Position numbers and translations under genes: made by a program. Below the pieces are notes generated by a model. That model made no database searches. It worked only from the letters and a program-made list of their open reading frames with translations, and was not told the DNA's origin. Positions 7,584 through 37,490 of a stretch of 64,000 nucleotides of DNA are shown here, piece by piece. How positions within the stretch are numbered: position 1 is the first letter of the stretch; every line of letters starts with the position of its first letter. This DNA is from an uncultured Candidatus Saccharibacteria bacterium (lineage in GTDB: Bacteria > Patescibacteriota > Dojkabacteria > GCA-002793355): the NCBI GenBank assembly GCA_964525295.1, contig CAZGEO010000001.1, forward strand, positions 376,662-440,661, given 5' to 3'.

Positions 7584-7585
7584 TT

Positions 7586-8563
7586 TTATTCCTGACTTAA
7601 AGCTAAGTATAGGCTTTTTGCTATTCTTTCGATCACAGGAACACTCACAGAATTTCCAAACTGTTTATAGAGCTGAGAATCAGCTATCAAAGGCAATTTA
7701 AAATTACGAGGAAATCCTTGAATTCTTGAACATTCTTTTGGTGTTATTTTTCTAATAATTTTACCCTGCCTGATAATTGGAACATTATGTCCCCCCATCC
7801 CCATGTTCGCTGTTAAAGTGGGAAAAACATTGTTTTTATTCTCTCTTACGTAAACCCTTCTCCATTGGTAAACGGTATCCTCTCTAGTTACAGAATCTTT
7901 CAATTTTGAAAATAAGTTTTTATTGTTGTATACGTACTTTTCATCTACATCAGAATCGAGAATATCTTTGATTCCCTTGTCCCGCTTGAGAGGATTTGGG
8001 AATTCAAATGAATCATAGTGTTTTTTCTGTTTGAATCCTACAATATATACTCTCTCTCTGTTTTGCGGTAAATTGCCATACTCCATCGAATTAAGCACCT
8101 TATACTTAACATAATATCCGAGTTCTTTTAATCGCTCGAATATAATTTTGAAAGTCCTCCCCTTATCATGTTTCTCTAAATTTTTAACATTCTCAAGAAA
8201 GAATGCGATAGGTTTAGTATCTTTAATTATTCTATCGATTTCGAAAAATAAATTTCCTCGCCCCTTTTCATCTTCAAAACCTTTTCTATAACCTGCAATG
8301 GAAAATGCTTGACATGGAAAACCACCTAAAAGAATATCATACTTCGGCAACTCTTCACTTTTTAAATCACGTATATCTTTAGTATCAAGTTTAATCGTTC
8401 CGAAATTCAAATCATATGTTACTTTACAATATTTATCGAAATCATTTGCATAAACAGTCTCAAATCCTTCAGAATTTTCAAACCCCAATCTAACTCCGCC
8501 AATACCGGCGAACAAATCGATTGTTTTAAATACTTTCTTTTTATTCATATCTATATTGTACAC
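7586..8563 (-). CDS. DNA (cytosine-5)-methyltransferase, M.HhaI-like
   Basis: Motif I is FAGIGG. Motif IV is GFPCQAFSIAG. Motif VI is ENV. Motif VIII is QNRERVYIVGF. Motifs IX/X are QFGNSVSVPV. Similarity to my recollection of M.HhaI runs along most of the length, apart from the variable TRD. Confidence 0.9.
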   Translation of the reverse strand: MYNIDMNKKKVFKTIDLFAGIGGVRLGFENSEGFETVYANDFDKYCKVTYDLNFGTIKLDTKDIRDLKSEELPKYDILLGGFPCQAFSIAGYRKGFEDEKGRGNLFFEIDRIIKDTKPIAFFLENVKNLEKHDKGRTFKIIFERLKELGYYVKYKVLNSMEYGNLPQNRERVYIVGFKQKKHYDSFEFPNPLKRDKGIKDILDSDVDEKYVYNNKNLFSKLKDSVTREDTVYQWRRVYVRENKNNVFPTLTANMGMGGHNVPIIRQGKIIRKITPKECSRIQGFPRNFKLPLIADSQLYKQFGNSVSVPVIERIAKSLYLALSQE

Positions 8564-8895
8564 GAGAATTGTTATTCACTTTGCTAATACATATTACAAT
8601 ATTATCATGATTTTTTAAAGAAATAATGATTCGATATATTGCTATGGGAAAACTACATTTCTAAATACTAAATTTACATGCTTATTTTTTAACCAATCGC
8701 TAATTCGGGGGAATCGGCTCCCCACCAAATTCTGGATTCATTCCTCATCACAGAATTTGCACATATAAGTTCTAGCGGGTTTTAGGCGTAGCCTCGCTCT
8801 CGTCAAACGTGAAATCGTTCACGTTCTCCTCAAGTTTCGATTCCCCAAATAATAAAAAAAGGTGTCTGCCCACTTTGCAAGTGAACAAACACCTT

Positions 8896-8968
8896 TGGAC
8901 CGTGGGGGAATCGAACCCTCGACCGAGCGATTAAGAGTCGCCTGCTCTACCGACTGAGCTAACGATCC
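8896..8968 (-). tRNA. tRNA-Lys (anticodon CTT)
   Basis: Manual cloverleaf: acceptor GGATCGT/ACGGTCC, D-arm GCTC-AGTCGGTA-GAGC, anticodon loop CT-CTT-AA, T-loop TTCGATT. Length is 73 nt. CCA is not encoded. Confidence 0.85.
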
Positions 8969-9055
8969 ACTAAGAATGCTGAATTATAACACAGCTAAAA
9001 CCTCCATTTCCAGAGCCAGAGAGCAAATCCTCCAACCAGTGCACATTGACAATCA

Positions 9056-9514
9056 TTAATTGATACGTATTTCTGTCGTACTCTTACCTGTTTTCTCTTT
9101 TACCTCTGGCGTGCGTAAAACGTACGAATCGGGTATGAATTTGTAAAAACGCCCCGAAAGAGCAGCATTTACTAAGTCTTCTGGTTTCAAAAACTCATCT
9201 TTTGCTTGAGGAAATTTCTTAACGTACGCAATACCCATTTTCACAATTTCGACTACATTGCATGCGACTACTCGACCATTGGCTTGGATGCCCCAAACTT
9301 TTCCAAAAGTGCTTTTTGGATCATAAATCGTAATTGCAACCTTACTGCCTTGCTCAATTTGTTTACTATGTAAGGCACTTTTGCTCGACAAGAAGAAGAG
9401 ATTCAGCTTCTCATCATGCACATAGAACACATTCGCTGACCACACTTCGTCATTGACTGAAGTCGCTAATGACAATGTTGTGTTAGAACGCAACAATATT
9501 TCCAATTCTTCCAT
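9056..9514 (-). CDS. Pyridoxamine 5'-phosphate oxidase-like (FMN-binding split barrel) family protein
   Basis: The 152-aa size and pattern resemble PNPOx-like / general stress protein 26 family members. Support is weak. Confidence 0.4.
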   Translation of the reverse strand: MEELEILLRSNTTLSLATSVNDEVWSANVFYVHDEKLNLFFLSSKSALHSKQIEQGSKVAITIYDPKSTFGKVWGIQANGRVVACNVVEIVKMGIAYVKKFPQAKDEFLKPEDLVNAALSGRFYKFIPDSYVLRTPEVKEKTGKSTTEIRIN

Positions 9515-9528
9515 ACGAAATTGTACAC

Positions 9529-12500
9529 TTATTTGACCGGATACACCATCAAGTTCTCAGCAATCAAGCGAACACCACCACTAAAACTTGGTAATTTGTT
9601 AATTACTAAACCTTTCTTACCGGCAAACTTACTCAATATTTTGTATCCCGGATCTAAGATTCGTAAGTAATAATCGCCATTTTTCACAACGAAATTATAC
9701 CCACCTCGCTTATTAGTGAAAGTTTTCGCAACCATCGTGTCGAATTCTTTCTCAAACAGTCCAATTTCTAGACCGCTGACGATTTTGCCATCTACACCAT
9801 TTACCGTTCCGTAAATTTTTGGCTTACTCAAATAGACTGCAAGTTTTAACACTAACAAGATTGCATAAATGCCAATAATTACGTAGTTTACTGTAACAGG
9901 ATACAGGTAACTAACCACAACGCTATATACAAGCCCCGCAACCAGAACAATTGGGCTAATGAGTGAAATTACCTCACTCGTGAAATTAGTTGCATATTTA
10001 GTGAACAATTCTCCTTTACTTCGCTTAACTGGGTCAAGAGGAATCGAAATCGTGAGTAATTCGTTATCTTCCTTAATTTCAATCACTTCTCCTTTATAAA
10101 TATTCGAAAATCCACTATCTGTATCGCTTGAAGCAACAAGTTTCGAGGGATAGGTAAATTCAGGATGAACGACCTTGATCACATACTGCCCTTTTTTCGG
10201 AGTTAGTTTGAAAATTCCCTGCGCGTCAGTGACAACGGTATCTACAAGTCTTCCAGACTTTGCATCCCACAAGCGTACTATCGCCCGCCCCACCATCTTT
10301 TTTGATACAGCGTTATACACTACTCCCCATGGCGTTCGTTTCTTACGTCGGTCTATCAACCCCGCTATCGCCATCCAGATATTTCCGTGCGCGACACCTA
10401 TCTGCATTGCAATAGTCTCAAGTGCAACGACGCCAATAAGCATCCCACCCGCCCCTTCCCAAGGGTACGCTGCGACGACATCAAGGTGTTTCGTTTGCAA
10501 TTTTTCGCAACTACCTTTACGGGCATAAAGCGTAATATCTTTTGAAGATTGCAATGAAATTGTTGCTGAACCAGAAAGTGGAAGATTTTCCGCAAAGGCA
10601 TTAATTGCCACGGTATCGGCTTGTTGTACATTCCACGTAATGGTGAAGTTCTCTCCTTTTTTGACCATCTTCGTACTAATAATGAAATCTTTAATAACTG
10701 GGCAGATTTCTGCGGAAATTGGGCTACCAGTTGGCACTATTGTTGTAACGACTACTTGCTGTACCTGAACGGTGACTGTTGCTTTGATTATCTTTCCTGA
10801 ACCTGTTTTTGCCGAGATTTCATAGGTTGTTGTGACTTTTGGTGAAACTTGTAACGTACCACTAGCACCAACTGCACCAATTGCTGGATTGATTGATAGA
10901 TCTGTAACGTTACTACTTTGCCATTGCAATGTTACCGATTCGCCAACCTTAATTTTTGACGCAGATGCGCTAATACCAAGAGATGGTGTTTTAGCAACGA
11001 CTACTGGAATAACCGTAATTGTTACTGACGCTTGCATCGTACTACCATCACCTTTTTGCCCAGTAATTGTATACGTGGTGGTTGCACCTGGTGTTACCGT
11101 CCGTGTACCATTAGCATCAACGGAACCAATATTCTGCGAAATACTGAGATTTGATAATTGTGTACTTTGCCATTGCAAAACGACGCTATTGCCTGGATTA
11201 ATCTGTGTTGCGGAAGCTGTCAATGTCAAAGTTGCAACAGTAGGAACAGGTAAAACGGTGATTGTTACAGATGCATTAACCGTTTCTCCAGTTTGAATGT
11301 TTTGCCCCGAGATTACGTACGTAGTTGTTGCTGATGGAGATACTTCGCGAGTGCCTGACGCTGAAACAGCGCCTACACCGTTATTAATTGACAAGTTGGT
11401 CAAGTTTTCACTACTCCATTGCAAGGTTGTTGCATTACCCACTATCAGCTCAGTTGCTGATGCTTGCAAACTTACTGTACCTACCAAGTTATTAACGGTT
11501 ACTGTAACCGAAGTGCGGAACGTTTCATTTAACGGACTAGTACCCGAAATTTCATAAGTAGTTGTTGAATCTGGAAAGATTACTAATGATCCTGCGGCGC
11601 CTACGGCGCCGATACCGTTATCAATTGATAAATTCGATAAATATTCACTTGACCACGATAGCGTCACACTATTTCCATTAATAACTGGATTGGGAACAGC
11701 TGTAATTGAAATTGTCGGCTGTACCTCTTCAACAAAAATTGTAACTGACGAAGTTACCGTTTCATCAGCTTCATTTGTTCCAGTTATGACATATGTTGTT
11801 GTTTCAAGAGGTGACACCTCAATACTTCCTGTAGTGCCAACACTTCCGATGCTGTTGTTAATTGAAAGATTCGAAATATAATTACTTTGCCATTGCAACG
11901 TTGTCGTTTGCCCCTGAATAATCTCAGTACTTGTTGCGCCAATAGATAAATATGGAATTCTTGGTGGGTTAACAGTAAATACCAAGGAATCTATCAATGT
12001 CGAGTTCACCGCATCTTCTACAGTTACTGTAAAAGTGCCTGACTCAAAGAATCTAATTGCGTTTGTAAATGTTCGTTGCCCGTTATCACCTGAAGTAAAC
12101 GTATATTCATCAGGTAATTGTGCAGAAAGGCTATCAGATCGAAACCTGACCGTTCCACGATATGTCGTGTCAACAGAACCAACTGAATTTAATGCAGCAA
12201 CGGTTACTGTTGCTGAGTCAGAAAATTCGAGTGTTGTATTCGGGCTTTGCATATCGAGAGCTGCGACTGTCGTAATCGTGAAATCTGCTGCATTCCCAGC
12301 GTTATCACCATAATCTCGCCATTCACTTTCGAGATTGTTATCGATATTTACCGTTCTCACTCGCCATTTGTACGAAGCACCCATTTCTAAATTCGCAACT
12401 TGAACACTCAGCACTACCGGTGGTCCACCGGTGAATATGACTGAATCTGAATCGTGAATTCCTGTCTGACCATCAAATAATTGATCAATTTTTTTCAATT

Positions 12501-15500
12501 CAACCTGAATCTTCAAGCGCTTAGGTGATGCGATTGTAGCGCCAGCATCGTACGCATCTGCCTTAAGTGTCACCGTAGTTCCGTTAATAACGCCACCAAC
12601 TGGAATTGCACTTTCAGTCACGCCAAGAACATCTGCTACTTTAGTAGCTGCCATAGCATAAACGATTTTTTCATCAGAAATTGAAGATTGCGCTGCTGGC
12701 TTAAGTTCGAATTGTTCGCGATATTGTGATGGCCATGGAACTGAGTTTGGCTCATCAGGGTAAGTACCGGTCTGACCTACCTGCGCACCATAGTTAGCCG
12801 GATCACTCGGAGTACCTTCTGCAACTGAAACAATCGCATTTACATAACATGGTCCAGAGTTATACAAAATTGAGACTCTTCCACCACCACCTGAACCACC
12901 GTCTACATCACTATTTCCACCTTCGCCACCACGTGCAGACAAAGTTCCCGAAATATCACAGGTGTTACCATGCAAAAGAATTGAACCACCAGCACCACCA
13001 CCGCCACCAGGACTGCCCGTACGCCCAATTGAACCATCCATGATAATCGAACCACGCACCGTAACATCACCTTTTGTGTAAACACCATCTTGCAACAAAC
13101 CTGAAGCAATAATTGCAAAGGCACCACCACCGTTTCCACCCATCGCACCCTGAGAACTTGCACCACCACCAGCACCTAACGTCTTCGGCACTAATTGCTC
13201 ACCATACTTCACACCACCTTGAGCGGGTTGGTTAACGCCATCACCCTGACCTTGACCGCCGTTACCACCGTTTGCACCACCACCACCACCGGAATAACCA
13301 ACACCACGATTACCACGACCTTGCCCTTCATCTGTTGGGAATCCTTGACCAGTTCCAATTATTGATGCTCCTGAATCAAGCAAGAAATTACCTTTTACGT
13401 TGAGGGTGACACCTTTACCAATCACTTGTGTGAGGTATTCATTGGTAAATTCGGCTAAAGTATAACCATTGTATTCCGCCTTAATTTCATCTGGCGTCAT
13501 TGCTCTGTTTTTGAGCGAAAATTCATCAAGATAACCAGCATAATACGGATCATCATTCCATGGGCTTCGACCAATGAATTTGTTTGCTCGTACCACATTA
13601 GGAATGGCAATTAATTGACTACTTTGTAACAAATTGCCATCGCGATAAATCGATGCATAACCAGTTGCCGAAACGGTAACTGCATAATGATGCCACTCGT
13701 TATTTATTATGCCGTTTGTCACCCGAATCCCACCAGCAGAACTAGACCCGTTGTATATTTCAAACCAAAGATCTGAACCTGTACCATAGCGAGACAAAAG
13801 CACATTGTTTGATGGAGTACCATTATTAAAATCAAAGAATCGTGCGTAATTAGGACTTGATGTCGGACGAGCCCAGAACGAAACACTGAACCCTGTTAAG
13901 AAATCCATTGGGCCATTTGGCAATGATACATAGGATCTGTTACCCGAGAAATAGGCTGATTGCCCATATACACCAGTTTTTGTAACTACTTCTTGCGCAT
14001 ATGGAGCTCCGTTTAATGAGACTTCATCACTAAAGTAATTTACCTTCTCATCATCAAAATGCCACAGAATTAGAGTTTCTGCATCGGCTGACAACTGCGA
14101 TGCAGTATTATTTAAGTTGGTTACCTCGATTGCAGAGATTTCACGGGAAAGAACTCTCACTTCATCAATAATTCCAGCGAAATAATGGCTCGTTGGTGCA
14201 TTCGCCCAACCGTTGAGATTGTCATAGCCGACTCGCACAAATGCAGTGTACGGATAATACGAAGTATTCGCATCAGAGGCAACTAATTGCCCATCTACAT
14301 ACAAACGCATACCGTTTACCGTTGAAAAGGTAGCTATAACATAATGCCACTCATTATCATTATAAGAATTCGCAGAGGTAATGACACGATTACCGTTGTT
14401 ATACATACCGAAGTTAATTCGCCCATCGTTAGAAAGATACAACGTTCTATCATTATAGTTTGTTGCAGTTGTTGACGAATCGCTAAATCCAATAAGCTTA
14501 CCGCCTACCGTTGTATTGGTTTTAAATCGTAATTCTAATGAGTAATCTACTGGTGTTGCCATCGAAACTCCCGAAACTACCTGACTATTGTAACCATTGA
14601 ATTGTAATGCATTACCATAAACTCCCGTCACTGACTTTTCACCGAGCCCGAACGCGCGATTAGATTGCGACAATGACGAATCTGCATATGATAATTCTGT
14701 TTCGTCTAACTGCCACAAGGCCACAGTATTCGTAGTCGCTGTCGGTGCTGTTTCTGAAGTTGCACTTGCAAGAATCTGTTCATTAGTCAAAAGACCTGAC
14801 GTAAGTCTTACTGCATCTAGTTGCCCAAAGTTTTGCCTACAGCCTGCAGTATTACAATAATTTCCTAAGTAACTAATAGCACCAGTCGGTCTACTCGCAA
14901 CACTACCAACTGAGACTCCATCTACAAAGAATTCTGTTGTTGAACCTGTAGATCTTGTCGCAATATGGTGCCAACCAGGTGTTAATGTGTTGACATTGAA
15001 TGATGTGGCGTAAAATGCGTTTGTATATAAACCAAGTCGTCCTGTATTTTCAACAATAATCGGATGTAAACCACCTTCAATTCTACCTACTGCGGTACGC
15101 CATCCATCAATAGTTGTAGGCAATGGGAATTTCGCCCATAATTCGAGTGTATAACTATCTGGTAAGGTAATTGGCTCAATCTTAATAACCTGATTTTGTA
15201 AAATACTCTGGCCACGACCGAATTTTCCAGATACGGCAGTAACACCACCAAATTGCATTGCATTATTAGCATTTATTGAAGAATCTACGAATCCCTGTTC
15301 ATCAAAATGTAACAACGCGACACTCTCATCAATCTTTACTGGAGCATGCGCTGCAGGCATTGTTGAGTTTTCAACAACTGCCTTAGTGTCACTCTTTACC
15401 CAAGCTGAAACATTTTGCCCAATTGTCACATCATTAAATGTGTAGTCACCTGCATCAAAATCGCCTGCCCTCGCTGCAACATTATTGTTGTCGACAATTA

Positions 15501-18500
15501 ATGAACCACCTCGTTCTGCATCAACGCCACGATTTTCAAAATATACTGTTCCAGGACCACCATTTCCGCGACTGCCTGTACCACCACGAGCCTGTAATGA
15601 AGTTGTTGACAGATCGAAACCGTCATTGGTGCGATAGTACAAAGCTATTCTCCCACCAGCACTTCCACCGCCATCCCAGTTTGAACCATTATATGCATTT
15701 GCGAGAATTTTGCCCGAACCAGACAGTTGATTTGTTTCTACCCAAATTGAACCACCGGTGCCACTATTAACCCCACCTGTATAGACTCCCAATGATTCAA
15801 TATTTCCATCAAGTCTCAATGCATTGTTTACAATCAAACGCATTGCACCGCCACCAGGAGAAACCGTATATCCACCACTTCCGAGATCTACTGGTTCATA
15901 TAAATTACCGTATGATGCACGAACTCCATTACCACCAGAGTACCCATATCCACCATATGATGCGCCTCCATGATAACCACCGGCTTCAATAGCTGCGCCT
16001 GGCCCACGATACCCACCGTAACCTTTACCAGAAGCCGTAATTAAACCACCTGTTTCAATAGTTAGGTCATTTGTTTGCAAGGTAACACCATAATCGTCTG
16101 TCCAAACAGAATCACCATCATCATATGAATTCATCGTTACTGTACCTAAAGGTCCAACGGTCAGAGTATCAATTTGATAACCATTGTTTTTGTTGTGATA
16201 CCAAGTATTCGCATTTAACGTTAAACCTGCAGAACTTGTTTGACCTACCGTAATTGCTGTTACTGGTGCACCTTCGATACCTTCGAGTTTACCTGCAATT
16301 TCTACATTGACTCCATCAATTGAGAAAGTTCCTGCACCAGTATATTTCAATGTACCTTGCACAGTTAGCAACGGTTTTGTGGCATCACCCGAGAAACCAC
16401 TAGGGCTTGTTATTTCAAGAATTCCTGCATTGCCCAAAAAGCGTACATTACCGTACCTACTTAATTCTATTCCTTTCAATTTGTATGTGCCTTCAACAAC
16501 GCCCGCATATTGGCCATTAACACCGTTGTTGTCAACAATCAAACGACCTGAATATCGCTCATCTACGCCGAGATTTTCTACATATACAGTTCCCGGACCA
16601 CCATTTCCACGGCCACCCGGACCACCGCGAGCTTGTAATGAATTCTTTGACAAATCAAAACCATCATTATTTCGATAATAAACTGCAATACGACCACCAG
16701 CACTACCACCACCATCCCAGTTTGTTGAAGTTGCACCATTGGCCGTTAATTTTCCTGCACCTGTAAGTTCATCAGTTTCTAACCAGATTGAACCACCTGT
16801 ACCACCATTTGCTTCTACGCCAGTATACACACCAGAAGTTTCAATAGTACCATTAATCGTAGAAGTTCCCGCGACTGAAATTTTAATTGCACCACCACCG
16901 GGAGATACTCGATACCCACCACTTCCTAGCGTGGTTGGTTCATACATACTTCCGTACGGATTGCGCACGCCATTTCCACCTGGATTACCAAGACCACCGT
17001 GAGAAGCACCGCTATGATTACCACCTGCCTCTACGGCTGCTCCTGGCCCACGATACCCGCTATAGCCATTACCTGTTGCAGTCATCATACCACCTGCATC
17101 GACGTTAAAATTCATTGTGGAAAGAGCCAGACCATGATCATTTGACCAATCTGAATCACCATTATCATAAGAGCGTACATAAACTACTCCTGTTGAACCA
17201 ATATCTAGCAAGGCAAATTCATATGGGGTGTCATATGAATAATTCCATGTGCGCGCATTTAGTGTTAAGTAGCCCGCAGAAGTTTTTCCAACTGTTATTG
17301 AATCGATATTTTCAATTTTCCCTTCGATTGCATAATGCCCGTTATTCTTAATATTAAACGGTTGCCCCCCAATATTTCGCAAGATACCTTTAACGGTAAC
17401 TCTTGCAGGATTTGTATCGACATTTACGGTATTTTCATCTACCTCAAGTACCCCAACGGTTTGATTACCATCAACAGTTACGTTACCTTTGCCTCGCAGT
17501 AAAATCGATTTCAGAGTATATGTGTCTGCGGGTAAATAAGCACCTGTTGTCGGGGCAGATGCGTGATTCCCATTATAAACAAGGAGTGTTCCTTGTTGGG
17601 GAGAATCTGTACCCTTTTGTTCGTAATAAATTGTTCCTGCACTTCCACCGTAACCATAATTTGCATTTTGATATCGACCACCGTAGGCGTTCACCGTGTT
17701 TTCATTAAGAGCTAACCCTTCAAGAGTTGAGTAATAAATTGCGATTCTACCACCACTTCCTCGACCTGTTGAAGCTGCATACCCACCACCGTTTGCACGA
17801 ATAACTGGAGTTCCTGTTGTTGAGCTCAATTTATTCGTGTCAATCCAAATACTTCCACCAGAAGGACTCGAATACCAACAACCATAACGCGTTGGATCAG
17901 CACTCGCATCAATAATACCATCGACGCGAAGTTCATTTGCGACGGTCAATTTCATTGCACCACCACCGAGTCCATTACTCGTTTCACCAGTATCTGCACC
18001 ACTACCTAGAAAGAGACTTCCATAAATTGTTCCGTACGGAACACCACCAACACCACCTGGACTACTACCACCATAACCACCGTATGAAGCACCGCCACAA
18101 CTTGCGGCGCCTGTACCACGACCAGCTGCATATCCGCGTGATATTGCATCAATCTTTCCGCCAGTTGCTACTGTTAAATTGTTGACTGAAAGTGAAACAC
18201 CATAATCATTTGTCCAGTTTGTATCACCGTTATCGTATCCTTGCATGTACAAACTACCATTTGCTGCAACGGTTATATCACCAAACTGCCAAGGTAACGT
18301 ATCATTGTGAGCCCATGTATTCGCATATAAAGTTACCCCTGCTGCACTACTTTCACCGATTTTTATTGCAGAAACACCCTGGGCATCGCCAGCTAACGCA
18401 ACGTTAACACCATTTACTCCCAAAGCAACCCCCGATTCGACTGGAGAATACTCGAATACACCGTTTATCGTAATCGAGGCAACATTACCCGTTGAACCAA

Positions 18501-21500
18501 CCAATGAATTACCGTTCGTTACCGTCAATTTCCCTGCCGAACTATTGCCCGCAAAAGTCACATGACCGCCATTAACTGCCTTAATTTCAGACAATACATA
18601 ATCACCCACAGGCACATATGCCCCACTTATTGAGGCTGTTGCATGATTTGCATTCGCAATCAAAAGCTTACCCTGTTGTGGGGTATCTACTCCTTTCTGT
18701 TCATAATAAATTGTACCTGCGCTACCTCCTTTACCATAATTACCATTCTGATAGCGTCCACCGATTGCCAGTACCGTATTTTCGTTAATTGCTAAACCTT
18801 CAAGAGCTGAGTAATAAATTGCGATTCTACCGCCACTTCCTCGACCAGTTGAAGCTGCATACCCACCACCGTTTGCACGAATGACAGGTGTTCCTGTAGT
18901 TGAACTTAGCTTATTGGTGTCGATCCAGATACTTCCTCCTGAACCACTTGAACCCCAGCACCCTGAACGTGTTGGATGAGCACTCGCGTCGATTATGCCA
19001 TCGACCTTAAGCTCGTTTGCAACGGTCAGTTTCATTGCACCACCACCAGGACCACTGCCTGATTCATTATCTGAACCGCTTCCAAGTGCAAGGCTACCAT
19101 AAATTGTGCCATACGGAACTCCACCTGCATTATTTGGGCCATTACCACCATAACCACCATAAGAAGCTCCACCACACCAAGCAGCGCCATAACCTCTCGC
19201 ATAACCGTAACCTCTTGCTACAGCATCAATATACCCACCTGTTGCTACAGTAAGATTATCAACTGATAAGGCGACACCATAATCATTCGACCAATTTGAG
19301 TCACCGTTATCGTAACCTTGCATGACTAACAAACCATTACTTGCAACGGTAATATTGCCAAATTCCCATGGAGTTGTATCATTGTGAGCCCAAGTATTTG
19401 CATAAAGCGTTACGGCAGATGTTTGTGTCGCACCAATAGAAATATCATTTATGCCAACAACGTCACCCTTAAGACCTAATTCAACACCTTCAACTTCTAG
19501 TGTTTCACCAGGATTTTCGGGAATGTACTTAAGTGTACCTTCTACATTAACCTGCGATAACGTAGAATCACCCTGAATTCCTTCTTTCGATGATAACTGT
19601 AAACTACCAGTTGTGGCATCACCTTTGAACAAAACATGCCCTTTTCTCGTTGCAATTATTTTCTTGAAAATATAGTTACCTGCGGGAACATATGCTTCAC
19701 GAGGATTCCCACTCGAGCGACTGTCTATAAGCAATGTTCCTTGTTGAGAAAGATCAACACCTAACTGTTCTACGTATACCGTACCAGCGCCACCACCCTG
19801 CCCATATGAATCGTTTTGATTACCACCATATGATTGCAAGTGCAAAGAATCAATTGCGAAACCATTATTGTTTGCGTAATACAATGCAACACGACCACCA
19901 CTTCCTCGACCAATTTCACTATTTGCACGAATAATACCTGTTCCAGTTGTTGAAGCAATTGTCGTTGCCTCGACCCAAACTGAACCACCAGATGCAGTAG
20001 AATTCCAGCATCCTAATGCGCCAGAATATGCGTTTGCCGAAATTGCTCCTTCTACTGTTAGAGTTCCTGAAAGCGTTAACTTTATAGCACCACCACCACT
20101 TCCTCGCTCTGAAGCACCGCTTCCGAGAAGAACACTTCCATATATCGAACCGTAAGGAGTTTTAGCAGCATTATATGGACCATTACCACCGTAACCACCA
20201 TAGGAAGCACCTGCACAATTTCCCCACCCTGGACCTCTACCTACGGCATAACCGGTTGCATCGGCACTAACTACCGCTCCCGATTCAACTAGCATATCAT
20301 CAGCCAGAATTGTTACACCATAATCATTTGACCAATCTCCATCGCCGTTGTCGTAACCTTGTAACGTCAAAGTTGCACCAGTTCTTACCGTTAACTGCCC
20401 AAGACCACGGCAATCGAAAACTCCACCAGGAACACTTGAGGCATTCCAGGTTGTTGCTTGATCAATAATGATTCCAGGACACGTGCCAAGTTGCGCCACA
20501 AACATAATTGAAGGCGAAACTCCGGTTATACCGTTGCCGTCACTTACTCTAATTTGAATATTTTCTGTGTACGAATAGGTCGCAGTATTGGTAGTTCCGA
20601 CGCCGTTTGTTAGTGTTATTGTTTCAGGAGCTAAGGTTCCCAACCCAGGAGACACCTGATCATATGAAGAAACCGGATATAACGTTACAGAACCATTATG
20701 AGGTACCGTATTACCGTACTTGTCTTTTGCTGTTACGGTTAAACTAAAGTTTGCATCTACCAAAACCAAACTTGAAGATGGTACAACCTGATAGGAAACA
20801 ATTTGATCTGGCACAGTACTCACCGTGAAGGTAACAGAATATCCAGTTGCGTAACGCCATACATTCATGGTGTTATTATTGATTCCTGCAGTACTTCCGA
20901 GTGTCCACGTTGCGGTTAATTCACCCCATTGATCTGTTGTATGCTGTTTATTGGTTACTAAACCACCACCACTAGTTACTGTCCAATTAAAATCTGGAAC
21001 AAAAGGCACGCCATATCCTGCTGCATCGACTGCACGCACGCGTGGTGCTGGATTTAACGGTTGGCCTGCTGCACCAGAAATGCCGTTTCCTTCAACAATA
21101 ATAAGTGAAGCCATCGGACCAGAAACGGTAAAATCACTATCGTTAACGGAATTGCCACCATATTGCACCCATGGGGAATATACGCCACTTGCATTAACAA
21201 TTCGTGCTTGCCATTTGTATTGTTCTGATACTGTCAAACCTGTAACTTCAGCGTACCCACAGTATTGACTGATTTGTACGCCTGATTGATCGGGAATGTC
21301 GTTACAGCTTTTATTACTTGCCAAGGTTACCTGTCCACCGGTTGGGATATTTTGGAATGCATCGGTCTTTTTTCGCACTTCGATCTGCAAACGCTCGTTT
21401 TCGCCTTGAATATTTGAGGCGAAAGTAATCTTTTGGCTTGTTGTCAGATAATCAATATCTAGTCTGCGATTTACAAAAGAAGTTGTATTTGCAGTTTCGT

Positions 21501-22485
21501 AAAATCGTAATACTGTTGGCGCAGCAGGAGCACACCCTGGGCCAATCTTAAAACCATCCTGACCATTTTGTGCACCAAGCCCTTTGTCAATGAATACCGA
21601 ACCTGAATATGACAATGTCGTGTTACAAATCATGACGACTCGTCCACCACCACCACCACCACCGACGTACGTTGCTGTGGCATCGGCACTACCACCACGA
21701 GCTGAAACAGTACCGTTTCCTGCAAGTACATTTGCTTGAATCCAAATAGAACCACCTGCGCCACCACCACCAGAAGTAACGCCATCACCACTTTTTGCAC
21801 CCAGTAAACCGTTTGCTGAAATTTCACCGTTAATAGTTACTGTTCCGGAAGATTCAATTCTTATTGCACCACCACCAGCTCCACCTGCTCCGCCCATACC
21901 GCCATCTGCGCCGGCACCACCTAAAGTAATCGGGGACTCGAGCAAACCATAGCTACCACCGGTTGAACCTAATACAACACCGACACCACCAGACGTATTA
22001 CCAGCACCACCTGCTCCACCATGACCACCACCAGAACCTGCAGCAGTACCTGTTGATGCAGTCGCAGACGCTAACGTTCCTGAAGAAGCATCGGTACTAC
22101 CAACCGTATAACCCTGCCCTGACGCAGTGATTTCACCACCATTTTCAATCGTTAAGTTACCAACTTTAAGCTGGACGCCCTTATCATCTGCTACATCAGC
22201 ATTTGCCGAGATTGAACTTTTCAATATCAACTTACCTGTACTGGTGATTGTAATATCTTGGGCGCTACAATCAACTATATTGTCTTCATTTGTAGGGGTA
22301 ATTTCAATTGTTGAATCGATTGTTGTTGGCAAAGAACAAGTTGCTGCACGCAATTGCGGGCCATTTTGCTGCATTTGACCAGCCAACGTTGAAAACATCA
22401 ATGAAAGAAATAGGAAATAGGCAAGCGTGACTTTATGAATTTGAGCTGCGATTGCGAGTGCGTGAGTCAAGCGGATACTTTTCAT
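9529..22485 (-). CDS. Giant (4318 aa) secreted surface protein, probable adhesin. It contains Gly-rich beta-helix modules, five ~360-aa tandem repeats, three LamG/ConA-like lectin domains, FN3/Big-like domains, six Ig-like repeats and a C-terminal beta-sandwich/2-TM anchor module.
   Basis: The single uninterrupted ORF is 12,957 nt. It has an N-terminal signal peptide. GGxGGxGG...SIWI...GG motifs are typical of right-handed beta-helix. Repeated YDNGDxxWxNDYGV modules occur. Three NEWHH-type LamG_3 motifs occur. Six ~95-aa repeats have the form TLxWxSxxxxNLSIxxxIGxVxxxGxxxVxPxxTTTYxItG. C-terminal hydrophobic helices are flanked by CarboxypepD_reg-like segments. Confidence 0.85.
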   Translation of the reverse strand: MKSIRLTHALAIAAQIHKVTLAYFLFLSLMFSTLAGQMQQNGPQLRAATCSLPTTIDSTIEITPTNEDNIVDCSAQDITITSTGKLILKSSISANADVADDKGVQLKVGNLTIENGGEITASGQGYTVGSTDASSGTLASATASTGTAAGSGGGHGGAGGAGNTSGGVGVVLGSTGGSYGLLESPITLGGAGADGGMGGAGGAGGGAIRIESSGTVTINGEISANGLLGAKSGDGVTSGGGGAGGSIWIQANVLAGNGTVSARGGSADATATYVGGGGGGGRVVMICNTTLSYSGSVFIDKGLGAQNGQDGFKIGPGCAPAAPTVLRFYETANTTSFVNRRLDIDYLTTSQKITFASNIQGENERLQIEVRKKTDAFQNIPTGGQVTLASNKSCNDIPDQSGVQISQYCGYAEVTGLTVSEQYKWQARIVNASGVYSPWVQYGGNSVNDSDFTVSGPMASLIIVEGNGISGAAGQPLNPAPRVRAVDAAGYGVPFVPDFNWTVTSGGGLVTNKQHTTDQWGELTATWTLGSTAGINNNTMNVWRYATGYSVTFTVSTVPDQIVSYQVVPSSSLVLVDANFSLTVTAKDKYGNTVPHNGSVTLYPVSSYDQVSPGLGTLAPETITLTNGVGTTNTATYSYTENIQIRVSDGNGITGVSPSIMFVAQLGTCPGIIIDQATTWNASSVPGGVFDCRGLGQLTVRTGATLTLQGYDNGDGDWSNDYGVTILADDMLVESGAVVSADATGYAVGRGPGWGNCAGASYGGYGGNGPYNAAKTPYGSIYGSVLLGSGASERGSGGGAIKLTLSGTLTVEGAISANAYSGALGCWNSTASGGSVWVEATTIASTTGTGIIRANSEIGRGSGGRVALYYANNNGFAIDSLHLQSYGGNQNDSYGQGGGAGTVYVEQLGVDLSQQGTLLIDSRSSGNPREAYVPAGNYIFKKIIATRKGHVLFKGDATTGSLQLSSKEGIQGDSTLSQVNVEGTLKYIPENPGETLEVEGVELGLKGDVVGINDISIGATQTSAVTLYANTWAHNDTTPWEFGNITVASNGLLVMQGYDNGDSNWSNDYGVALSVDNLTVATGGYIDAVARGYGYARGYGAAWCGGASYGGYGGNGPNNAGGVPYGTIYGSLALGSGSDNESGSGPGGGAMKLTVANELKVDGIIDASAHPTRSGCWGSSGSGGSIWIDTNKLSSTTGTPVIRANGGGYAASTGRGSGGRIAIYYSALEGLAINENTVLAIGGRYQNGNYGKGGSAGTIYYEQKGVDTPQQGKLLIANANHATASISGAYVPVGDYVLSEIKAVNGGHVTFAGNSSAGKLTVTNGNSLVGSTGNVASITINGVFEYSPVESGVALGVNGVNVALAGDAQGVSAIKIGESSAAGVTLYANTWAHNDTLPWQFGDITVAANGSLYMQGYDNGDTNWTNDYGVSLSVNNLTVATGGKIDAISRGYAAGRGTGAASCGGASYGGYGGSSPGGVGGVPYGTIYGSLFLGSGADTGETSNGLGGGAMKLTVANELRVDGIIDASADPTRYGCWYSSPSGGSIWIDTNKLSSTTGTPVIRANGGGYAASTGRGSGGRIAIYYSTLEGLALNENTVNAYGGRYQNANYGYGGSAGTIYYEQKGTDSPQQGTLLVYNGNHASAPTTGAYLPADTYTLKSILLRGKGNVTVDGNQTVGVLEVDENTVNVDTNPARVTVKGILRNIGGQPFNIKNNGHYAIEGKIENIDSITVGKTSAGYLTLNARTWNYSYDTPYEFALLDIGSTGVVYVRSYDNGDSDWSNDHGLALSTMNFNVDAGGMMTATGNGYSGYRGPGAAVEAGGNHSGASHGGLGNPGGNGVRNPYGSMYEPTTLGSGGYRVSPGGGAIKISVAGTSTINGTIETSGVYTGVEANGGTGGSIWLETDELTGAGKLTANGATSTNWDGGGSAGGRIAVYYRNNDGFDLSKNSLQARGGPGGRGNGGPGTVYVENLGVDERYSGRLIVDNNGVNGQYAGVVEGTYKLKGIELSRYGNVRFLGNAGILEITSPSGFSGDATKPLLTVQGTLKYTGAGTFSIDGVNVEIAGKLEGIEGAPVTAITVGQTSSAGLTLNANTWYHNKNNGYQIDTLTVGPLGTVTMNSYDDGDSVWTDDYGVTLQTNDLTIETGGLITASGKGYGGYRGPGAAIEAGGYHGGASYGGYGYSGGNGVRASYGNLYEPVDLGSGGYTVSPGGGAMRLIVNNALRLDGNIESLGVYTGGVNSGTGGSIWVETNQLSGSGKILANAYNGSNWDGGGSAGGRIALYYRTNDGFDLSTTSLQARGGTGSRGNGGPGTVYFENRGVDAERGGSLIVDNNNVAARAGDFDAGDYTFNDVTIGQNVSAWVKSDTKAVVENSTMPAAHAPVKIDESVALLHFDEQGFVDSSINANNAMQFGGVTAVSGKFGRGQSILQNQVIKIEPITLPDSYTLELWAKFPLPTTIDGWRTAVGRIEGGLHPIIVENTGRLGLYTNAFYATSFNVNTLTPGWHHIATRSTGSTTEFFVDGVSVGSVASRPTGAISYLGNYCNTAGCRQNFGQLDAVRLTSGLLTNEQILASATSETAPTATTNTVALWQLDETELSYADSSLSQSNRAFGLGEKSVTGVYGNALQFNGYNSQVVSGVSMATPVDYSLELRFKTNTTVGGKLIGFSDSSTTATNYNDRTLYLSNDGRINFGMYNNGNRVITSANSYNDNEWHYVIATFSTVNGMRLYVDGQLVASDANTSYYPYTAFVRVGYDNLNGWANAPTSHYFAGIIDEVRVLSREISAIEVTNLNNTASQLSADAETLILWHFDDEKVNYFSDEVSLNGAPYAQEVVTKTGVYGQSAYFSGNRSYVSLPNGPMDFLTGFSVSFWARPTSSPNYARFFDFNNGTPSNNVLLSRYGTGSDLWFEIYNGSSSAGGIRVTNGIINNEWHHYAVTVSATGYASIYRDGNLLQSSQLIAIPNVVRANKFIGRSPWNDDPYYAGYLDEFSLKNRAMTPDEIKAEYNGYTLAEFTNEYLTQVIGKGVTLNVKGNFLLDSGASIIGTGQGFPTDEGQGRGNRGVGYSGGGGGANGGNGGQGQGDGVNQPAQGGVKYGEQLVPKTLGAGGGASSQGAMGGNGGGAFAIIASGLLQDGVYTKGDVTVRGSIIMDGSIGRTGSPGGGGGAGGSILLHGNTCDISGTLSARGGEGGNSDVDGGSGGGGRVSILYNSGPCYVNAIVSVAEGTPSDPANYGAQVGQTGTYPDEPNSVPWPSQYREQFELKPAAQSSISDEKIVYAMAATKVADVLGVTESAIPVGGVINGTTVTLKADAYDAGATIASPKRLKIQVELKKIDQLFDGQTGIHDSDSVIFTGGPPVVLSVQVANLEMGASYKWRVRTVNIDNNLESEWRDYGDNAGNAADFTITTVAALDMQSPNTTLEFSDSATVTVAALNSVGSVDTTYRGTVRFRSDSLSAQLPDEYTFTSGDNGQRTFTNAIRFFESGTFTVTVEDAVNSTLIDSLVFTVNPPRIPYLSIGATSTEIIQGQTTTLQWQSNYISNLSINNSIGSVGTTGSIEVSPLETTTYVITGTNEADETVTSSVTIFVEEVQPTISITAVPNPVINGNSVTLSWSSEYLSNLSIDNGIGAVGAAGSLVIFPDSTTTYEISGTSPLNETFRTSVTVTVNNLVGTVSLQASATELIVGNATTLQWSSENLTNLSINNGVGAVSASGTREVSPSATTTYVISGQNIQTGETVNASVTITVLPVPTVATLTLTASATQINPGNSVVLQWQSTQLSNLSISQNIGSVDANGTRTVTPGATTTYTITGQKGDGSTMQASVTITVIPVVVAKTPSLGISASASKIKVGESVTLQWQSSNVTDLSINPAIGAVGASGTLQVSPKVTTTYEISAKTGSGKIIKATVTVQVQQVVVTTIVPTGSPISAEICPVIKDFIISTKMVKKGENFTITWNVQQADTVAINAFAENLPLSGSATISLQSSKDITLYARKGSCEKLQTKHLDVVAAYPWEGAGGMLIGVVALETIAMQIGVAHGNIWMAIAGLIDRRKKRTPWGVVYNAVSKKMVGRAIVRLWDAKSGRLVDTVVTDAQGIFKLTPKKGQYVIKVVHPEFTYPSKLVASSDTDSGFSNIYKGEVIEIKEDNELLTISIPLDPVKRSKGELFTKYATNFTSEVISLISPIVLVAGLVYSVVVSYLYPVTVNYVIIGIYAILLVLKLAVYLSKPKIYGTVNGVDGKIVSGLEIGLFEKEFDTMVAKTFTNKRGGYNFVVKNGDYYLRILDPGYKILSKFAGKKGLVINKLPSFSGGVRLIAENLMVYPVK
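15500..20450 (-). repeat. Intragenic tandem repeats, period ~1080 bp, 5 copies. Copies 2 and 3 are near-identical at the DNA level.
   Basis: Stretches of 60-90 nt are identical at 17701-17830 and 18781-18910. The NTWAHND-encoding segments at ~18305 and ~19385 lie exactly 1080 bp apart. Diverged copies sit at ~16215, ~17250 and ~20380. Confidence 0.8.
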
Positions 22486-23459
22486 TTTTTCGTCTCTTTT
22501 GAATTACCTGAATTTTCTTTCTCTTTTGTTTGCTTTTGCGATAACATCTTTGCCTGCAAAAATGCATAAAATATCAAGATTGGTAAGAGAAGAATCTGAA
22601 GAAGCATGACCACTAGCAATATTGGCATAGTTTTAGTGCAAAGATAGATGATTAATGAAGTAGCAGCCATTACCAAGAAATATGGTATGTACAAACTCCA
22701 ACACATCTTAATGCAACGTTGTGGTTCTTCACATAGACGAGATTGCAACATACTAACCAAGTAACCAATAACTAGTCCAAATAGAAAATGTGCAGCAATT
22801 CCGAGAAGATACGCAAGGATGAATACCAAAATTGCTCCAACAATTACATAAACCGTGATCAATTGAGGTGAAAGGAAGGAATTAAAGTGTGTATACAACC
22901 CTTGCTTGTCGTATGAAACGCCTTCTTTTAGACCGATTTGTTGATATCGAACCTGTTTCACACCTGTATTAAGATGTACTCGAATCCCTTGTTTATCAAA
23001 TTGCAAACCGTAACGTGAGATTTTTTTACCCTCATGGACGATATCGTCCCAAAAATACTTATTTAGTTTGCCAGTTGTGTCAACAACTACAAAATATTGG
23101 GACTTTTCTGTACTTGAAAGCAAGAATGTCCAAATAGCTGGTTTAATATCAATATTTAATTCGTTATTTTTAATTACTACGCGTGAAAAATTCGCATTAA
23201 CCAACGCATTGTCTATTGCTTTTTTAGCATTTTCTACAAGAGGAAGATAGGTAAACAGTACCATACCAAGATAAATCACTACCGCAACTAGTGCCTGAAC
23301 AAACCCAAAACGGGCAATCACTTTTTTATGATAAGACAACGGCAAAGCCACGGATTCTTCTATCTCTGCGGGGTGCAGTGATAGTGGGGCCAGCGGTGCT
23401 TTTTTTCTCTCTCCTTGCATGTAGCAATTCAGTATAGCAACTCTGCAAGTTTGAGACAA
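22482..23459 (-). CDS. Polytopic membrane protein, hypothetical. Translationally coupled to the giant surface protein gene.
   Basis: The stop TGA (22482-22484) overlaps the ATG of the 4318-aa gene (22483-22485), an ATGA overlap. It has one N-terminal TM helix, an extracytoplasmic loop of ~150 aa and then 3-4 C-terminal TM helices. Confidence 0.5.
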   Translation of the reverse strand: MSQTCRVAILNCYMQGERKKAPLAPLSLHPAEIEESVALPLSYHKKVIARFGFVQALVAVVIYLGMVLFTYLPLVENAKKAIDNALVNANFSRVVIKNNELNIDIKPAIWTFLLSSTEKSQYFVVVDTTGKLNKYFWDDIVHEGKKISRYGLQFDKQGIRVHLNTGVKQVRYQQIGLKEGVSYDKQGLYTHFNSFLSPQLITVYVIVGAILVFILAYLLGIAAHFLFGLVIGYLVSMLQSRLCEEPQRCIKMCWSLYIPYFLVMAATSLIIYLCTKTMPILLVVMLLQILLLPILIFYAFLQAKMLSQKQTKEKENSGNSKETKK

Positions 23460-28663: not shown

Positions 28664-28779
28664 GCTTGGCAACGACCTATTTTCCCAGGAGAAAAATCCA
28701 AGTATCTTCGGCGCTGGAGTGTTTCACTTCCGAGTTCGGAAAGGGATCGGGTGGGTCCACTCCGCTCTTGTCACCAAGC
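28664..28779 (-). rRNA. rrf: 5S ribosomal RNA (unlinked to the 16S-23S operon)
   Basis: Reverse complement reads GCTTGGTGACAAGAGCGGAGTGGACCCACCCGATCCCTTTCCGAACTCGGAAGTGAAACACTCCAGCGCCGAAGATACTTGG...GTTGCCAAGC. The conserved 5S loop CCGAACTCGGAAGTGAAAC and loop GCGCCGA(A/T)G are present. Helix I closes the 5' and 3' ends. Length is 116 nt. Confidence 0.8.

Positions 28780-34334: not shown

Positions 34335-37490
<3,156 letters not shown>

Follow-up and report, generated by a model that had tools for sequence, protein, structure and literature searches.

The 64,000-nt stretch of DNA analysed here (the window) contains two overlapping genes which, we propose with moderate confidence, form a functional unit in a monoderm-type CPR bacterium related to Ca. 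Dojkabacteria, encoding a membrane-anchored surface fibre of 4318 aa and a dedicated membrane accessory protein, hereafter the partner. The giant protein would be exported via an N-terminal Sec-type signal and held in the cytoplasmic membrane by a C-terminal base whose two beta-sandwich domains would both lie on the cytoplasmic side, while an FN3-like/Ig-like stalk on this base would carry, facing outwards, seven Gly-rich beta-solenoid modules together with three LamG/ConA-like domains. This distal array most likely binds a ligand, probably a glycan, on another cell or surface. The partner, which has four transmembrane (TM) helices and a conserved ectodomain of ~100 aa, would be produced by translational coupling on an mRNA shared with the giant protein, and most likely acts at the stalk and base, perhaps in physical contact with the latter, to insert, stabilise or position the fibre. 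The features of the window referred to below are as follows:

9529..22485, minus strand: giant gene, 4318 aa plus stop codon
22482..22485, minus strand: ATGA stop/start overlap of the partner and giant genes, read from the minus-strand sequence
22482..23420, minus strand: partner gene, 312-aa membrane protein with four TM helices (hydropathy, AF2, gene callers)
23431..23459, minus strand: promoter-like site TTGTCT, 17 nt, TATACT, with upstream TG (consensus match only)
22342..22485, minus strand: aa 1-48, basic N-terminus, hydrophobic segment (aa ~20-36) and conserved AA(T/S)CS motif (sequence, orthologue N-termini)
21511..22341, minus strand: aa 49-325, N-terminal Gly-rich beta-solenoid module, 24.5% Gly (self-comparison, orthologues)
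20551..21510, minus strand: aa 326-645, FN3-like domain, then two Big_1-like Ig domains (Pfam, sub-threshold)
15376..20550, minus strand: aa 646-2370, five tandem repeats of ~347-360 aa each (self-BLAST, AF2)
13480..15303, minus strand: aa ~2395-3002, three LamG/ConA-like domains, boundaries approximate (Pfam Laminin_G_3)
12616..13473, minus strand: aa 3005-3290, seventh Gly-rich beta-solenoid core, 25.6% Gly (self-comparison)
11986..12615, minus strand: aa 3291-3500, FN3-like plus Big-like stalk segment (Pfam, orthologue comparison)
10501..11985, minus strand: aa 3501-3995, six Ig-like repeats of ~80 aa each (motif; Ig_ADGRF3, E 1.5e-7)
9532..10473, minus strand: aa 4005-4318, base, comprising TM1, DRRKKR, CarboxypepD_reg 1, TM2, a 4-aa loop, TM3 and CarboxypepD_reg 2 (hydropathy, Pfam)
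40017..42665, minus strand: paralogous base-module protein, 882 aa (A4 HMM, E 5.4e-64)

The giant ORF starts with ATG in the ORF listing and makes up ~2% of the 0.66-Mb genome. Its junction with the partner gene reads ...gagacgaaaaaATGAaaagt... on the minus strand, with the giant ATG at 22485-22483 and the partner TGA at 22484-22482, as expected from the ATGA overlap of the original prediction. Such an overlap points to translational coupling rather than to stoichiometry, and among relatives the two genes overlap by as much as 56 nt or lie 23 nt (L014) or 38 nt (L015) apart, so that the "stoichiometric co-translation" first read into it went too far. The partner ORF had been listed as 22482..23459 (minus strand, TTG start, 325 aa); that it encodes a membrane protein holds, but its length is probably 13 aa too long, since TTG 23459 is the first base of the promoter-like TTGTCT-17-TATACT match, two gene callers place the start at ATG 23420 (312 aa), and orthologues align from ATG 23420 on. 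The 3' end of the promoter-like site lies ~10 nt before this ATG, which would mean a very short or absent leader; promoter-like sites in the region are no more numerous than the shuffled expectation. A template/variable repeat pair was sought in the 64 kb and none was found, and a diversity-generating retroelement was ruled out as the long direct repeats of the window are confined to the giant gene. A GH18 gene lies near the giant gene in the window, and likewise in relatives.

The division of the giant protein into three parts, as originally proposed, is borne out by its repeats, Laminin_G_3 domains, Ig-like repeats and C-terminal base. Residues 1-48 form a Sec-type signal peptide or signal anchor; a lipoprotein signal was rejected because the AA(T/S)CS motif of the giant protein and its orthologues is unlike a lipobox. 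Seven Gly-rich beta-solenoid cores are present, five of them within ~355-aa repeats. The N-terminal module carries a conserved Cys pair (aa 50 and 73) and shares 46-56% identity with orthologues, and the FN3-like domain that follows (aa ~326-455) is homologous to aa 3362-3405. Self-BLAST in 200-aa chunks delineated the five repeats from aa ~650 to ~2370 (34-80% identity) and a partial copy at aa 77-290. The Gly-rich solenoid repeat matched no Pfam family, and its AF2 model is an all-beta solenoid (pLDDT 88, pTM 0.92). Foldseek searches with this model returned nothing at E <= 0.001 (best E 0.039, TM-scores ~0.2), the non-significant list consisting mostly of right-handed beta-helix adhesins, tailspikes and lyases (tapirin, Ag43, TibA, PfbA). 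The three predicted lectin domains were confirmed by Pfam, with Laminin_G_3 (PF13385; 158.1 bits versus a cut-off of 27.6, E 2.3e-46) matching three stretches, the best at aa 2848-3002. The core at aa 3005-3290 matches aa 102-311 with 38% identity (E 1e-31); a relationship to the gliding protein AgmC (NF047640) was rejected at 28.8 bits versus a cut-off of 275, the similarity being one of low-complexity Gly-rich sequence. Pfam gave no Gly_rich_2 (PF21722) match in the giant protein, and that of orthologue L004 sits in an insert which the giant protein does not have. All six predicted Ig-like repeats were recovered through a T(L/I)(Q/S/T)W motif at aa 3528, 3607, 3686, 3768, 3851 and 3947, the sixth repeat being divergent, membrane-adjacent and equipped with a Cys pair (aa 3928 and 3993). 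The FN3-like domains fared less well: fn3 (PF00041) does match the giant protein, but only below threshold (13.7 bits versus 25), a threshold reached by the homologous base-module proteins of L025 and L032. Big_1 (PF02369) is also sub-threshold, at 21.4 bits versus 34.9, and its match in aa 326-645 (E 2.8e-4) falls under the Pfam cut-off.

Domain content of this kind suggests a role as an adhesin in host attachment. Several protein adhesins are required for epibiotic growth of a cultivated patescibacterium (PMC10633639), and giant attachment proteins that are N-out and C-anchored have been proposed in Omnitrophota (10.1101/2023.11.21.568195). We regard it as unlikely that the giant protein is instead primarily an envelope or S-layer-like component, a surface enzyme or a predatory effector, for instance a polysaccharide lyase or depolymerase, with beta-helices directed at cell-wall polymers of the host or of the cell itself. 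The Foldseek list of the repeat also includes polygalacturonases, lyases of alginate, fucoidan and pectate, and depolymerases from phage tailspikes, the nearby GH18 gene would suit such a function, and giant proteins of Omnitrophota have been proposed to take part in cell-wall degradation (same source). However, Pfam/NCBIfam scans found no catalytic family above threshold across the 4318 aa, the structural matches are all non-significant, and the variation in repeat number and shuffling of LamG domains are more typical of binding proteins, while a single copy tethered by three TM helices would be unusual for a lattice-forming S-layer protein.

At its C-terminus the giant protein does carry the membrane anchor that had been predicted, but "TM anchor" is too modest a label for what is a conserved ~310-aa module with three TM stretches by hydropathy (at about aa 4013-4033, 4168-4199 and 4193-4222) and two CarboxypepD_reg domains (PF13620, matched twice within the last 348 aa; 44.6 bits, E 1.9e-11, cut-off 32.3). 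Across 80 base-module homologues the net charge is +3.6 after TM1 and +2.9 after TM3, and the TM2-TM3 loop consists of four neutral residues, a pattern that fits the positive-inside rule. From this charge bias alone, both CarboxypepD_reg beta-sandwich domains are predicted to be cytoplasmic; CarboxypepD_reg domains are extracytoplasmic as a rule, and TM1, which contains E, Q and H residues, has just a moderate hydrophobicity (KD 1.79). A search of PDB sequences with the base gave nothing meaningful. The module has 212 metagenomic relatives and is C-terminal in all 80 loci kept; as none of these 80 loci contains a partner gene, the base does not in general depend on this partner. Its closest relatives, L016 and L017, were uninformative in this respect, the gene of L016 leaving the contig and that of L017 being split by an IS200-like transposase. 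In the window itself, the C-terminal 280 aa of the 882-aa paralogue are 33% identical to giant aa 4035-4318, and the paralogue gene is likewise ATGA-coupled to its upstream gene. Two other modes of anchoring were rejected: the sole LPXTG-like match, LPLSG at aa 3968, lies within Ig repeat 6 (LPLSG/LPLTG here being internal to an Ig domain), 37 aa ahead of TM1 and ~350 further residues of conserved base module, which speaks against a sortase anchor, and a C-terminus of three alpha-helical TM segments and CarboxypepD_reg domains, with no autotransporter family found, speaks against a type V autotransporter of the Ag43/TibA kind.

Hydropathy and the AF2 model of the partner (pLDDT 89, pTM 0.77) agree on four TM segments, laid out as TM1 (aa 28-75), a beta-rich ectodomain (aa 81-182), TM2-4 (aa 185-308) and a K-rich tail; the N-terminus and this tail are modelled as cytoplasmic. 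Foldseek and a profile search against the PDB found no relative of solved structure. The partner family is tiny, with about 20 representatives among 1.84 billion proteins, and a metagenome scan with an alignment of eight partner sequences found no relative. Weak matches to DUF1189 (PF06691) were obtained for 5 of 18 family members (best E 9.1e-8; homologue P0002 at 25.2 bits versus a cut-off of 28), and the partner shares with DUF1189 a multi-pass architecture of ~300 aa, but the window protein itself has no PF06691 match in Pfam even at E <= 10; we consider it probably distantly DUF1189-like (Yip1 clan, CL0112). We know of no established function for DUF1189, and the accessible parts of its literature contained no dedicated family study and no tie to giant surface proteins. 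With its small size, membrane anchoring, beta-rich ectodomain and gene directly upstream of a large surface protein, the partner also recalls WxLIP/DUF916 (PF06030) of Firmicutes WxL loci, from which it differs in having four TM helices and no homology. In metagenomes, WxLIP-like proteins do precede other base-module proteins in the same position as the partner, with one of four tested reaching the PF06030 threshold, but these bear a signal peptide and only one TM segment, at the C-terminus. The order N-in, TM1, extracytoplasmic domain, TM2-4 is that of MacB/FtsX/LolE-type permeases, which stand at the foot of the partner's Foldseek list (TM-scores about 0.18, E 4.7-9.2, non-significant); their sequences give no match, the window has no ABC ATPase next to the partner gene, and the likeness is one of topology only. 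An export role for the partner is without support, as the giant protein bears its own Sec-type N-terminal signal.

The genomic contexts of partner homologues were assembled from 12 look-ups of encoding contigs and one genome scan. The pairing was found in:

the window (L001 being the same genome)
L002 and L003 (Ca. Dojkabacteria CP129470.1)
L004 (4545 aa) and L005
L006/L007 (2570 and 2227 aa)
L008/L009 (896 aa)
L010, L012, L014 (842 aa) and L015

This revealed that the partner lies directly upstream of a giant-protein homologue in 10 of 11 distinct informative loci, supporting the original prediction of a dedicated partner that precedes giant genes. The link is rather to the C-terminal stalk and base than to giant size: downstream proteins range from 842 to 4545 aa, and the 842-896-aa versions retain only giant aa ~3283-3600 and ~3734/3928-4316, without any beta-helix or LamG module, yet are preceded by the partner. 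The stalk segment at aa 3291-3500 is found in every partner-linked homologue, these short versions included. The conserved core consists of partner, FN3/Ig stalk and base, whereas relatives may have the beta-helix/LamG array fused to it, encode the array by a separate gene or lack it. In L014 the beta-helix protein comes from a separate downstream gene and bears a signal peptide of its own, the L006 protein has exactly one 343-aa repeat more than that of L007, and orthologues gain or lose LamG, Gly_rich_2 and DUF2341 modules. Literature searches on DUF1189, on giant proteins of Dojkabacteria and on CPR beta-helix/Laminin_G_3 proteins turned up no account of this pair.

The pairing is confined to one small related clade, so that shared ancestry would explain part of it. 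That it is nothing but inherited synteny, a ybaB-recR-X-giant block of one lineage in which the partner does an unrelated membrane job such as transport, a role on which there has been speculation for the Yip1 clan, strikes us as distinctly improbable. ybaB/recR neighbours do recur in the window, L002, L003, L004, L012 and L015, the base module is common without the tiny, single-clade partner family, and the Yip1 clan has similarity to transporters (PMC6682643); in L011 the gene of partner homologue P0014 has a terminator-like hairpin behind it and no overlapping gene. Against this, the pair is kept amid wholly different flanking genes in L006 (ABC ATPase, small ORFs), L008 (unrelated ORFs) and L010 (cupredoxin, Cu-ATPase), holds with partner identity down to ~20%, and is still found with downstream proteins as short as 842 aa, down from 4545 aa; of the 10 paired loci, 8 have a partner gene whose 3' end runs into the next gene.

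That the long ORF is an artefact, whether a misassembled repeat array or several genes or a pseudogene taken for one, is scarcely credible, for while the short-read assembly of the same organism (L001) ends within the repeat region, the one-repeat difference between L006 and L007 could be an assembly collapse and one orthologue (L017) has an IS200-like insertion, the 12,957 nt are stop-free, the repeats are only 61-79% identical at the DNA level, making collapse or chimerism unlikely, collinear orthologues of 2227-4545 aa occur in independent assemblies including a complete Dojkabacteria genome, and the N-terminal signal and C-terminal anchor are found only at the two ends. The 4318-aa sequence is also identical in an NCBI-derived collection (659,080-bp contig), an independent gene call that yields the same ORF, and the single intact gene of the original prediction stands.

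Among the closest known parallels are the "dockerin-type" giants of Omnitrophota (West-Roberts et al., 10.1101/2023.11.21.568195). These too are encoded by giant genes of ultra-small bacteria, have a long TM-free N-terminal extracellular region and C-terminal TM and intracellular regions, and are proposed to function in attachment to a host or prey cell. The present protein is ~ten times smaller than the giants described there and belongs to another phylum, has no detected dockerin, SecA-like or peptidase domains, and comes with a small conserved membrane partner of a kind that the parts of that study consulted here do not describe. With monoderm beta-solenoid/Ig-stalk adhesins (serine-rich-repeat protein (SRRP) binding regions, PfbA, Caldicellulosiruptor tapirins) it shares a Sec signal, an Ig/FN3-like stalk, right-handed-beta-helix-like modules, lectin-type domains and variation in repeat number, and tapirin (E 0.039), SRRP and PfbA are the best structural neighbours of its repeat, none significantly so. 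Unlike these adhesins, it has no valid LPXTG/sortase signal, S-layer-homology or choline-binding anchor but the three-TM module with two CarboxypepD_reg domains, and its Gly-rich solenoid repeat has neither a Pfam family nor a significant PDB neighbour. What appears to be new in the locus is the tiny partner family, its conserved pairing, the stalk/base core, the distribution of the base without the partner, and the paralogue at 40017-42665.

The three-TM/CarboxypepD_reg base is a common C-terminal anchor of diverse metagenomic surface proteins and may be a useful annotation handle for surface proteins of uncultivated bacteria. If the cytoplasmic location of its beta-sandwich domains is right, this anchor may do more than tether. 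A bolder and doubtful reading, to which we assign a low probability, is that the base is an undescribed, widespread membrane "pedestal" of Patescibacteria-like organisms with interchangeable cargo and lineage-specific accessories. The base would then couple extracellular cargo, either fused as in the giant protein or encoded by a separate gene (L014; the second pair of the window, 40017-47161), to the cell interior, in a complex completed by small accessory membrane proteins that are DUF1189-like here and WxLIP-like elsewhere. If true, this would be a modular apparatus for docking surface fibres or for signalling rather than just an anchored adhesin.

Attachment to host cells is thought to be part of the life of CPR/Patescibacteria, and to our knowledge the molecules behind it are largely unknown outside the Saccharibacteria. 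Read as a surface fibre with a dedicated membrane accessory, the locus is a concrete two-component candidate for attachment in the Dojkabacteria lineage. Its distal beta-helix/LamG array varies among relatives, as would be expected of a host-range determinant, and the conserved core of stalk, base and partner may offer an experimental target.

The ORF listing of the window placed the giant gene directly downstream of a gene for a small membrane protein, its partner:

9529..22485 (-): giant gene, 4318 aa, ATG start
22482..23459 (-): partner ORF, 325 aa, TTG start, immediately 5' of the giant gene

Reading the minus-strand junction (gagacgaaaaaATGAaaagt) revealed that the giant ATG and the partner TGA overlap at 22485-22482 (-), as the original prediction had claimed from an ATGA. 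The upstream ORF likewise proved real, but the length of 325 aa given for it did not hold: the TTG at 23459 opens a promoter-like TTGTCT-17-TATACT match, and both two gene callers and the alignment of partner orthologues favour ATG 23420, which yields 312 aa. On the 3' side, a 152-aa ORF within 8858-9514 (-), with a weak, sub-threshold match to PNPOx_N (E 0.006), begins 14 nt past the giant stop codon; after it come tRNA-Lys(CTT) and, at 8896-8858, a strong terminator hairpin of 18 bp, so that one transcription unit may span ~23.4 kb to 8.86 kb.

The giant protein was analyzed by self-comparison and Pfam scanning, and the architecture first read from it (signal peptide, Gly-rich beta-helix repeats, three LamG-type domains, FN3-like domains, Ig-like repeats and TM anchor) was correct. 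Its parts, in giant-protein residues, are:

aa 1-48: N-terminus, with a basic start, a hydrophobic stretch (aa ~20-36) and the conserved motif AA(T/S)CS
aa 77-290: partial Gly-rich repeat copy (self-comparison)
aa ~326-455 and ~3291-3410: mutually homologous FN3-like domains (self-comparison)
aa ~650 to ~2370: five tandem Gly-rich repeats, ~347-360 aa each (self-comparison)
aa 3005-3290: further Gly-rich core, 38% identical to aa 102-311 (E 1e-31)
aa 3528-3947: six Ig-like repeats of ~80 aa each, with a recurring TLQW-type motif
last ~310 aa: C-terminal base, with three hydrophobic segments and two CarboxypepD_reg domains (E 1.9e-11)

Laminin_G_3 was matched by three stretches (E 2.3e-46), the FN3-like and Big_1-like domains gave sub-threshold Pfam scores only, and the Gly-rich repeat, present as seven cores in total, was covered by no family in the Pfam scan. 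A repeat-unit model generated from an alignment of the window's repeats with 12 database homologues was confident and all-beta (pLDDT 88, pTM 0.92). Foldseek returned no significant match to it in the PDB (best E 0.039), and the non-significant list consisted mostly of right-handed beta-helix proteins, including tapirin, Ag43, TibA, PfbA, SRRP, tailspikes and polysaccharide lyases. Taken together, the model and this list support a beta-solenoid as the fold class of the repeat. An LPLSG at aa 3968 (window ~10579-10593; LPLTG in the homologous locus L006) resembles a sortase signal and sits 37 aa ahead of TM1 and its DRRKKR tail. Because it falls within the sixth Ig-like domain, with ~350 residues comprising the conserved base still to come, it was rejected as such a signal and is probably structural.

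No Pfam or NCBIfam family matched the partner itself, and an exhaustive HMMER search with a two-sequence profile found only 20 family members among 1.84 billion representatives. DUF1189 (PF06691), a Yip1-clan family of unknown function (PMC6682643), was weakly matched by 5 of 18 aligned members (best E 9.1e-8). The AF2 model of the partner was confident (pLDDT 89), running from a cytoplasmic N-terminus through TM1, a beta-rich ectodomain (aa 81-182) and three TM helices to a K-rich tail. The most conserved positions fall in the ectodomain motifs ANFS, DIKPxIW and NxxFWDDR, and a His in TM2 is kept in most members. Neither Foldseek nor HMMER identified a relative of solved structure; MacB, FtsX and LolE are look-alikes in topology, with non-significant Foldseek matches.

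Searching 185,579 species genomes for the partner gave CP129470.1, a complete 0.89-Mb Candidatus Dojkabacteria (WS6) MAG, as the sole match. CP129470.1 and several metagenomic contigs have in common the gene order GH18 - YidC - rnpA - ybaB - recR - partner - giant, to which the window adds a gene for an M32 carboxypeptidase, placed after recR and before the pair. This sole match and the common local order place the source organism among the CPR/Patescibacteria, as a small-genome relative of Dojkabacteria. The window has a GC content of ~0.39 and an rRNA operon in the order 16S-tRNA(Ile)-tRNA(Ala)-23S, the 23S rRNA of which is ~200 nt longer than the model through insertion or expansion. Neighbouring features include two envelope genes and a probable type II restriction-modification pair at 6459-8563 (-):

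1675-3285 (+): 536-aa protein with a PEGA domain
6459-7583 (-): upstream-overlapping ORF carrying the C-terminal domain of an NgoFVII-type restriction enzyme
7586-8563 (-): C-5 cytosine methyltransferase (E 5.6e-92)
25110-25739: RecR
26912-28036: YidC
28664-28778: 5S rRNA, unlinked to the rRNA operon
28921-30816: GH18
34329-37468 (-): 23S rRNA match, 3140 nt versus a 2925-nt model
61196-63286 (+): 696-aa Wzy_C (O-antigen-ligase-like) protein with TPR repeats

Whether the partner precedes a giant-type gene in relatives had been put forward as a test of the pair, and the outcome was positive, with one exception, in the genomic contexts of 13 partner homologues (16-34% identical to the window's partner). 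In each paired locus (the window, L002, L003, L004, L005, L006/L007, L008/L009, L010, L012, L014 and L015) a giant-protein homologue is the next same-strand gene. The exception, P0014 in L011, is followed by a hairpin and T-run and then an AT-rich spacer, on a contig that stops 136 nt past the gene; L013 is too short to show pairing. Eight junctions overlap by 4-56 nt and two are gapped (L014, 23 nt; L015, 38 nt), suggesting that translational coupling is frequent but not universal. The stoichiometric co-translation read into the ATGA was not sustained, as such an overlap does not fix stoichiometry and L014 and L015 are gapped.

Across these loci the protein downstream of the partner varies from 842 to 4545 aa. 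The versions of 896 aa (L008) and 842 aa (L014) keep only two stretches: a stalk of FN3, Big and first Ig domains equivalent to giant aa ~3283-3600, and the final Ig repeats with the base, equivalent to aa ~3734/3928-4316. In L014 the gene directly downstream encodes the N-terminal beta-helix module as a protein of its own, with a separate signal peptide; L008 lacks that module, and the next gene there encodes a P-type ATPase. Among long versions, L004 carries an additional Gly_rich_2, DUF2341 and LamG insert and L006 is without LamG. As short versions keep only stalk and base and long versions swap modules, partner, stalk and base form a conserved core and the distal array is variable cargo. 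The L006 and L007 giant genes (2570 versus 2227 aa) differ by exactly one 343-aa repeat; their partners are identical (344 aa) and adjacent giant repeats are ~95% identical, and the difference is either true copy-number variation or assembly collapse. At L017:176-640 an IS200/IS605-type transposase-like ORF occupies the place expected for the 5' portion of the orthologous surface-protein gene, and in the sister contig L016 the gene runs on instead, which suggests an IS insertion into the gene or a chimeric contig.

The base also occurs beyond the pair. A metagenome scan with the base alignment (A4) recovered 212 relatives, and in all 80 loci kept the base lies at the C-terminus, of proteins of 284-3351 aa; four that were Pfam-scanned bear N-terminal fn3, purple-acid-phosphatase-N-like, HINT and FGE-sulfatase-like domains. 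A partner homologue was absent from all 80 loci, even with HMMER filters off, so the partner is specific to the sub-clade also sharing the aa 3283-3600 stalk. In eight loci (L032, L037, L040, L041, L043, L045, L046 and L060) a different family of small membrane-anchored proteins recurs immediately upstream of the base-module protein. These homologous proteins (~300-345 aa) have a signal peptide, a beta-rich domain, a C-terminal TM and a basic tail, one matches WxLIP_PGBD (PF06030; E 2.5e-6), and they may represent an alternative accessory class. Net charge over the 80 base members is +3.6 after TM1 and +2.9 after TM3, and the TM2-TM3 loop consists of four neutral residues. From these positive segments, the positive-inside rule predicts that both CarboxypepD_reg domains are cytoplasmic, an unusual location for this fold.

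The window itself holds a second base-bearing pair:

40017-42665 (-): 882-aa ORF with a paralogous base (A4 HMM, E 5.4e-64)
40017-47161 (-): second ATGA-coupled pair, overlapping at 42665-42662

The C-terminal base of the 882-aa protein is 33% identical to giant aa 4035-4318. Its ORF is coupled by the ATGA, with a GGAGAGG Shine-Dalgarno, to that of an upstream 1499-aa secreted protein containing a Peptidase_S74 intramolecular-chaperone domain, typical of trimeric tail fibres. This pair echoes L014, suggesting that base-bearing and fibre-like proteins can be distinct products of neighbouring genes.

We think it probable, and best supported, that the system is a membrane-held surface fibre with a binding array and a four-TM accessory partner. 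The giant protein would be exported by Sec to the surface as a fibre and held in the membrane through its C-terminal base, the beta-solenoid and LamG modules, displayed by the Ig/FN3 stalk, would serve binding, probably of glycans, and the co-expressed partner would join stalk and base, presumably in physical contact with the latter, as an assembly or anchoring accessory. Gene structure, domains, fold class, pairing and modularity are established by the analysis, and the base topology, the physical contact and the adhesive role are predicted. In published work, multiple protein adhesins are required for epibiotic growth of a cultivated patescibacterium (PMC10633639), and a study on Omnitrophota proposes C-anchored giant attachment proteins (10.1101/2023.11.21.568195). 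That the giant protein is instead structural or enzymatic, and not adhesive, seems unlikely. We give somewhat less credence to the pairing being inherited synteny without functional coupling; flanking genes around the pair are unrelated in L006, L008 and L010. An assembly artefact or a run of separate genes is very unlikely, and the giant gene stands as the single intact gene predicted, since its intragenic direct repeats are only 61-79% identical at the DNA level, collinear orthologues (2227-4545 aa) are known from independent assemblies, and the identical 4318-aa sequence is found in an NCBI-derived set of proteins, encoded on a contig of 659,080 bp of which the gene makes up ~1.97%.

Giant surface proteins that combine beta-helix, lectin and Ig modules are already known. 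Within the literature searched, we found no description of the DUF1189-like partner family, of its near-obligate pairing with this surface protein, or of the three-TM/CarboxypepD_reg base as an anchor found widely at C-termini. With the function being what we infer from it, the observation itself is well supported and useful for CPR surface biology.
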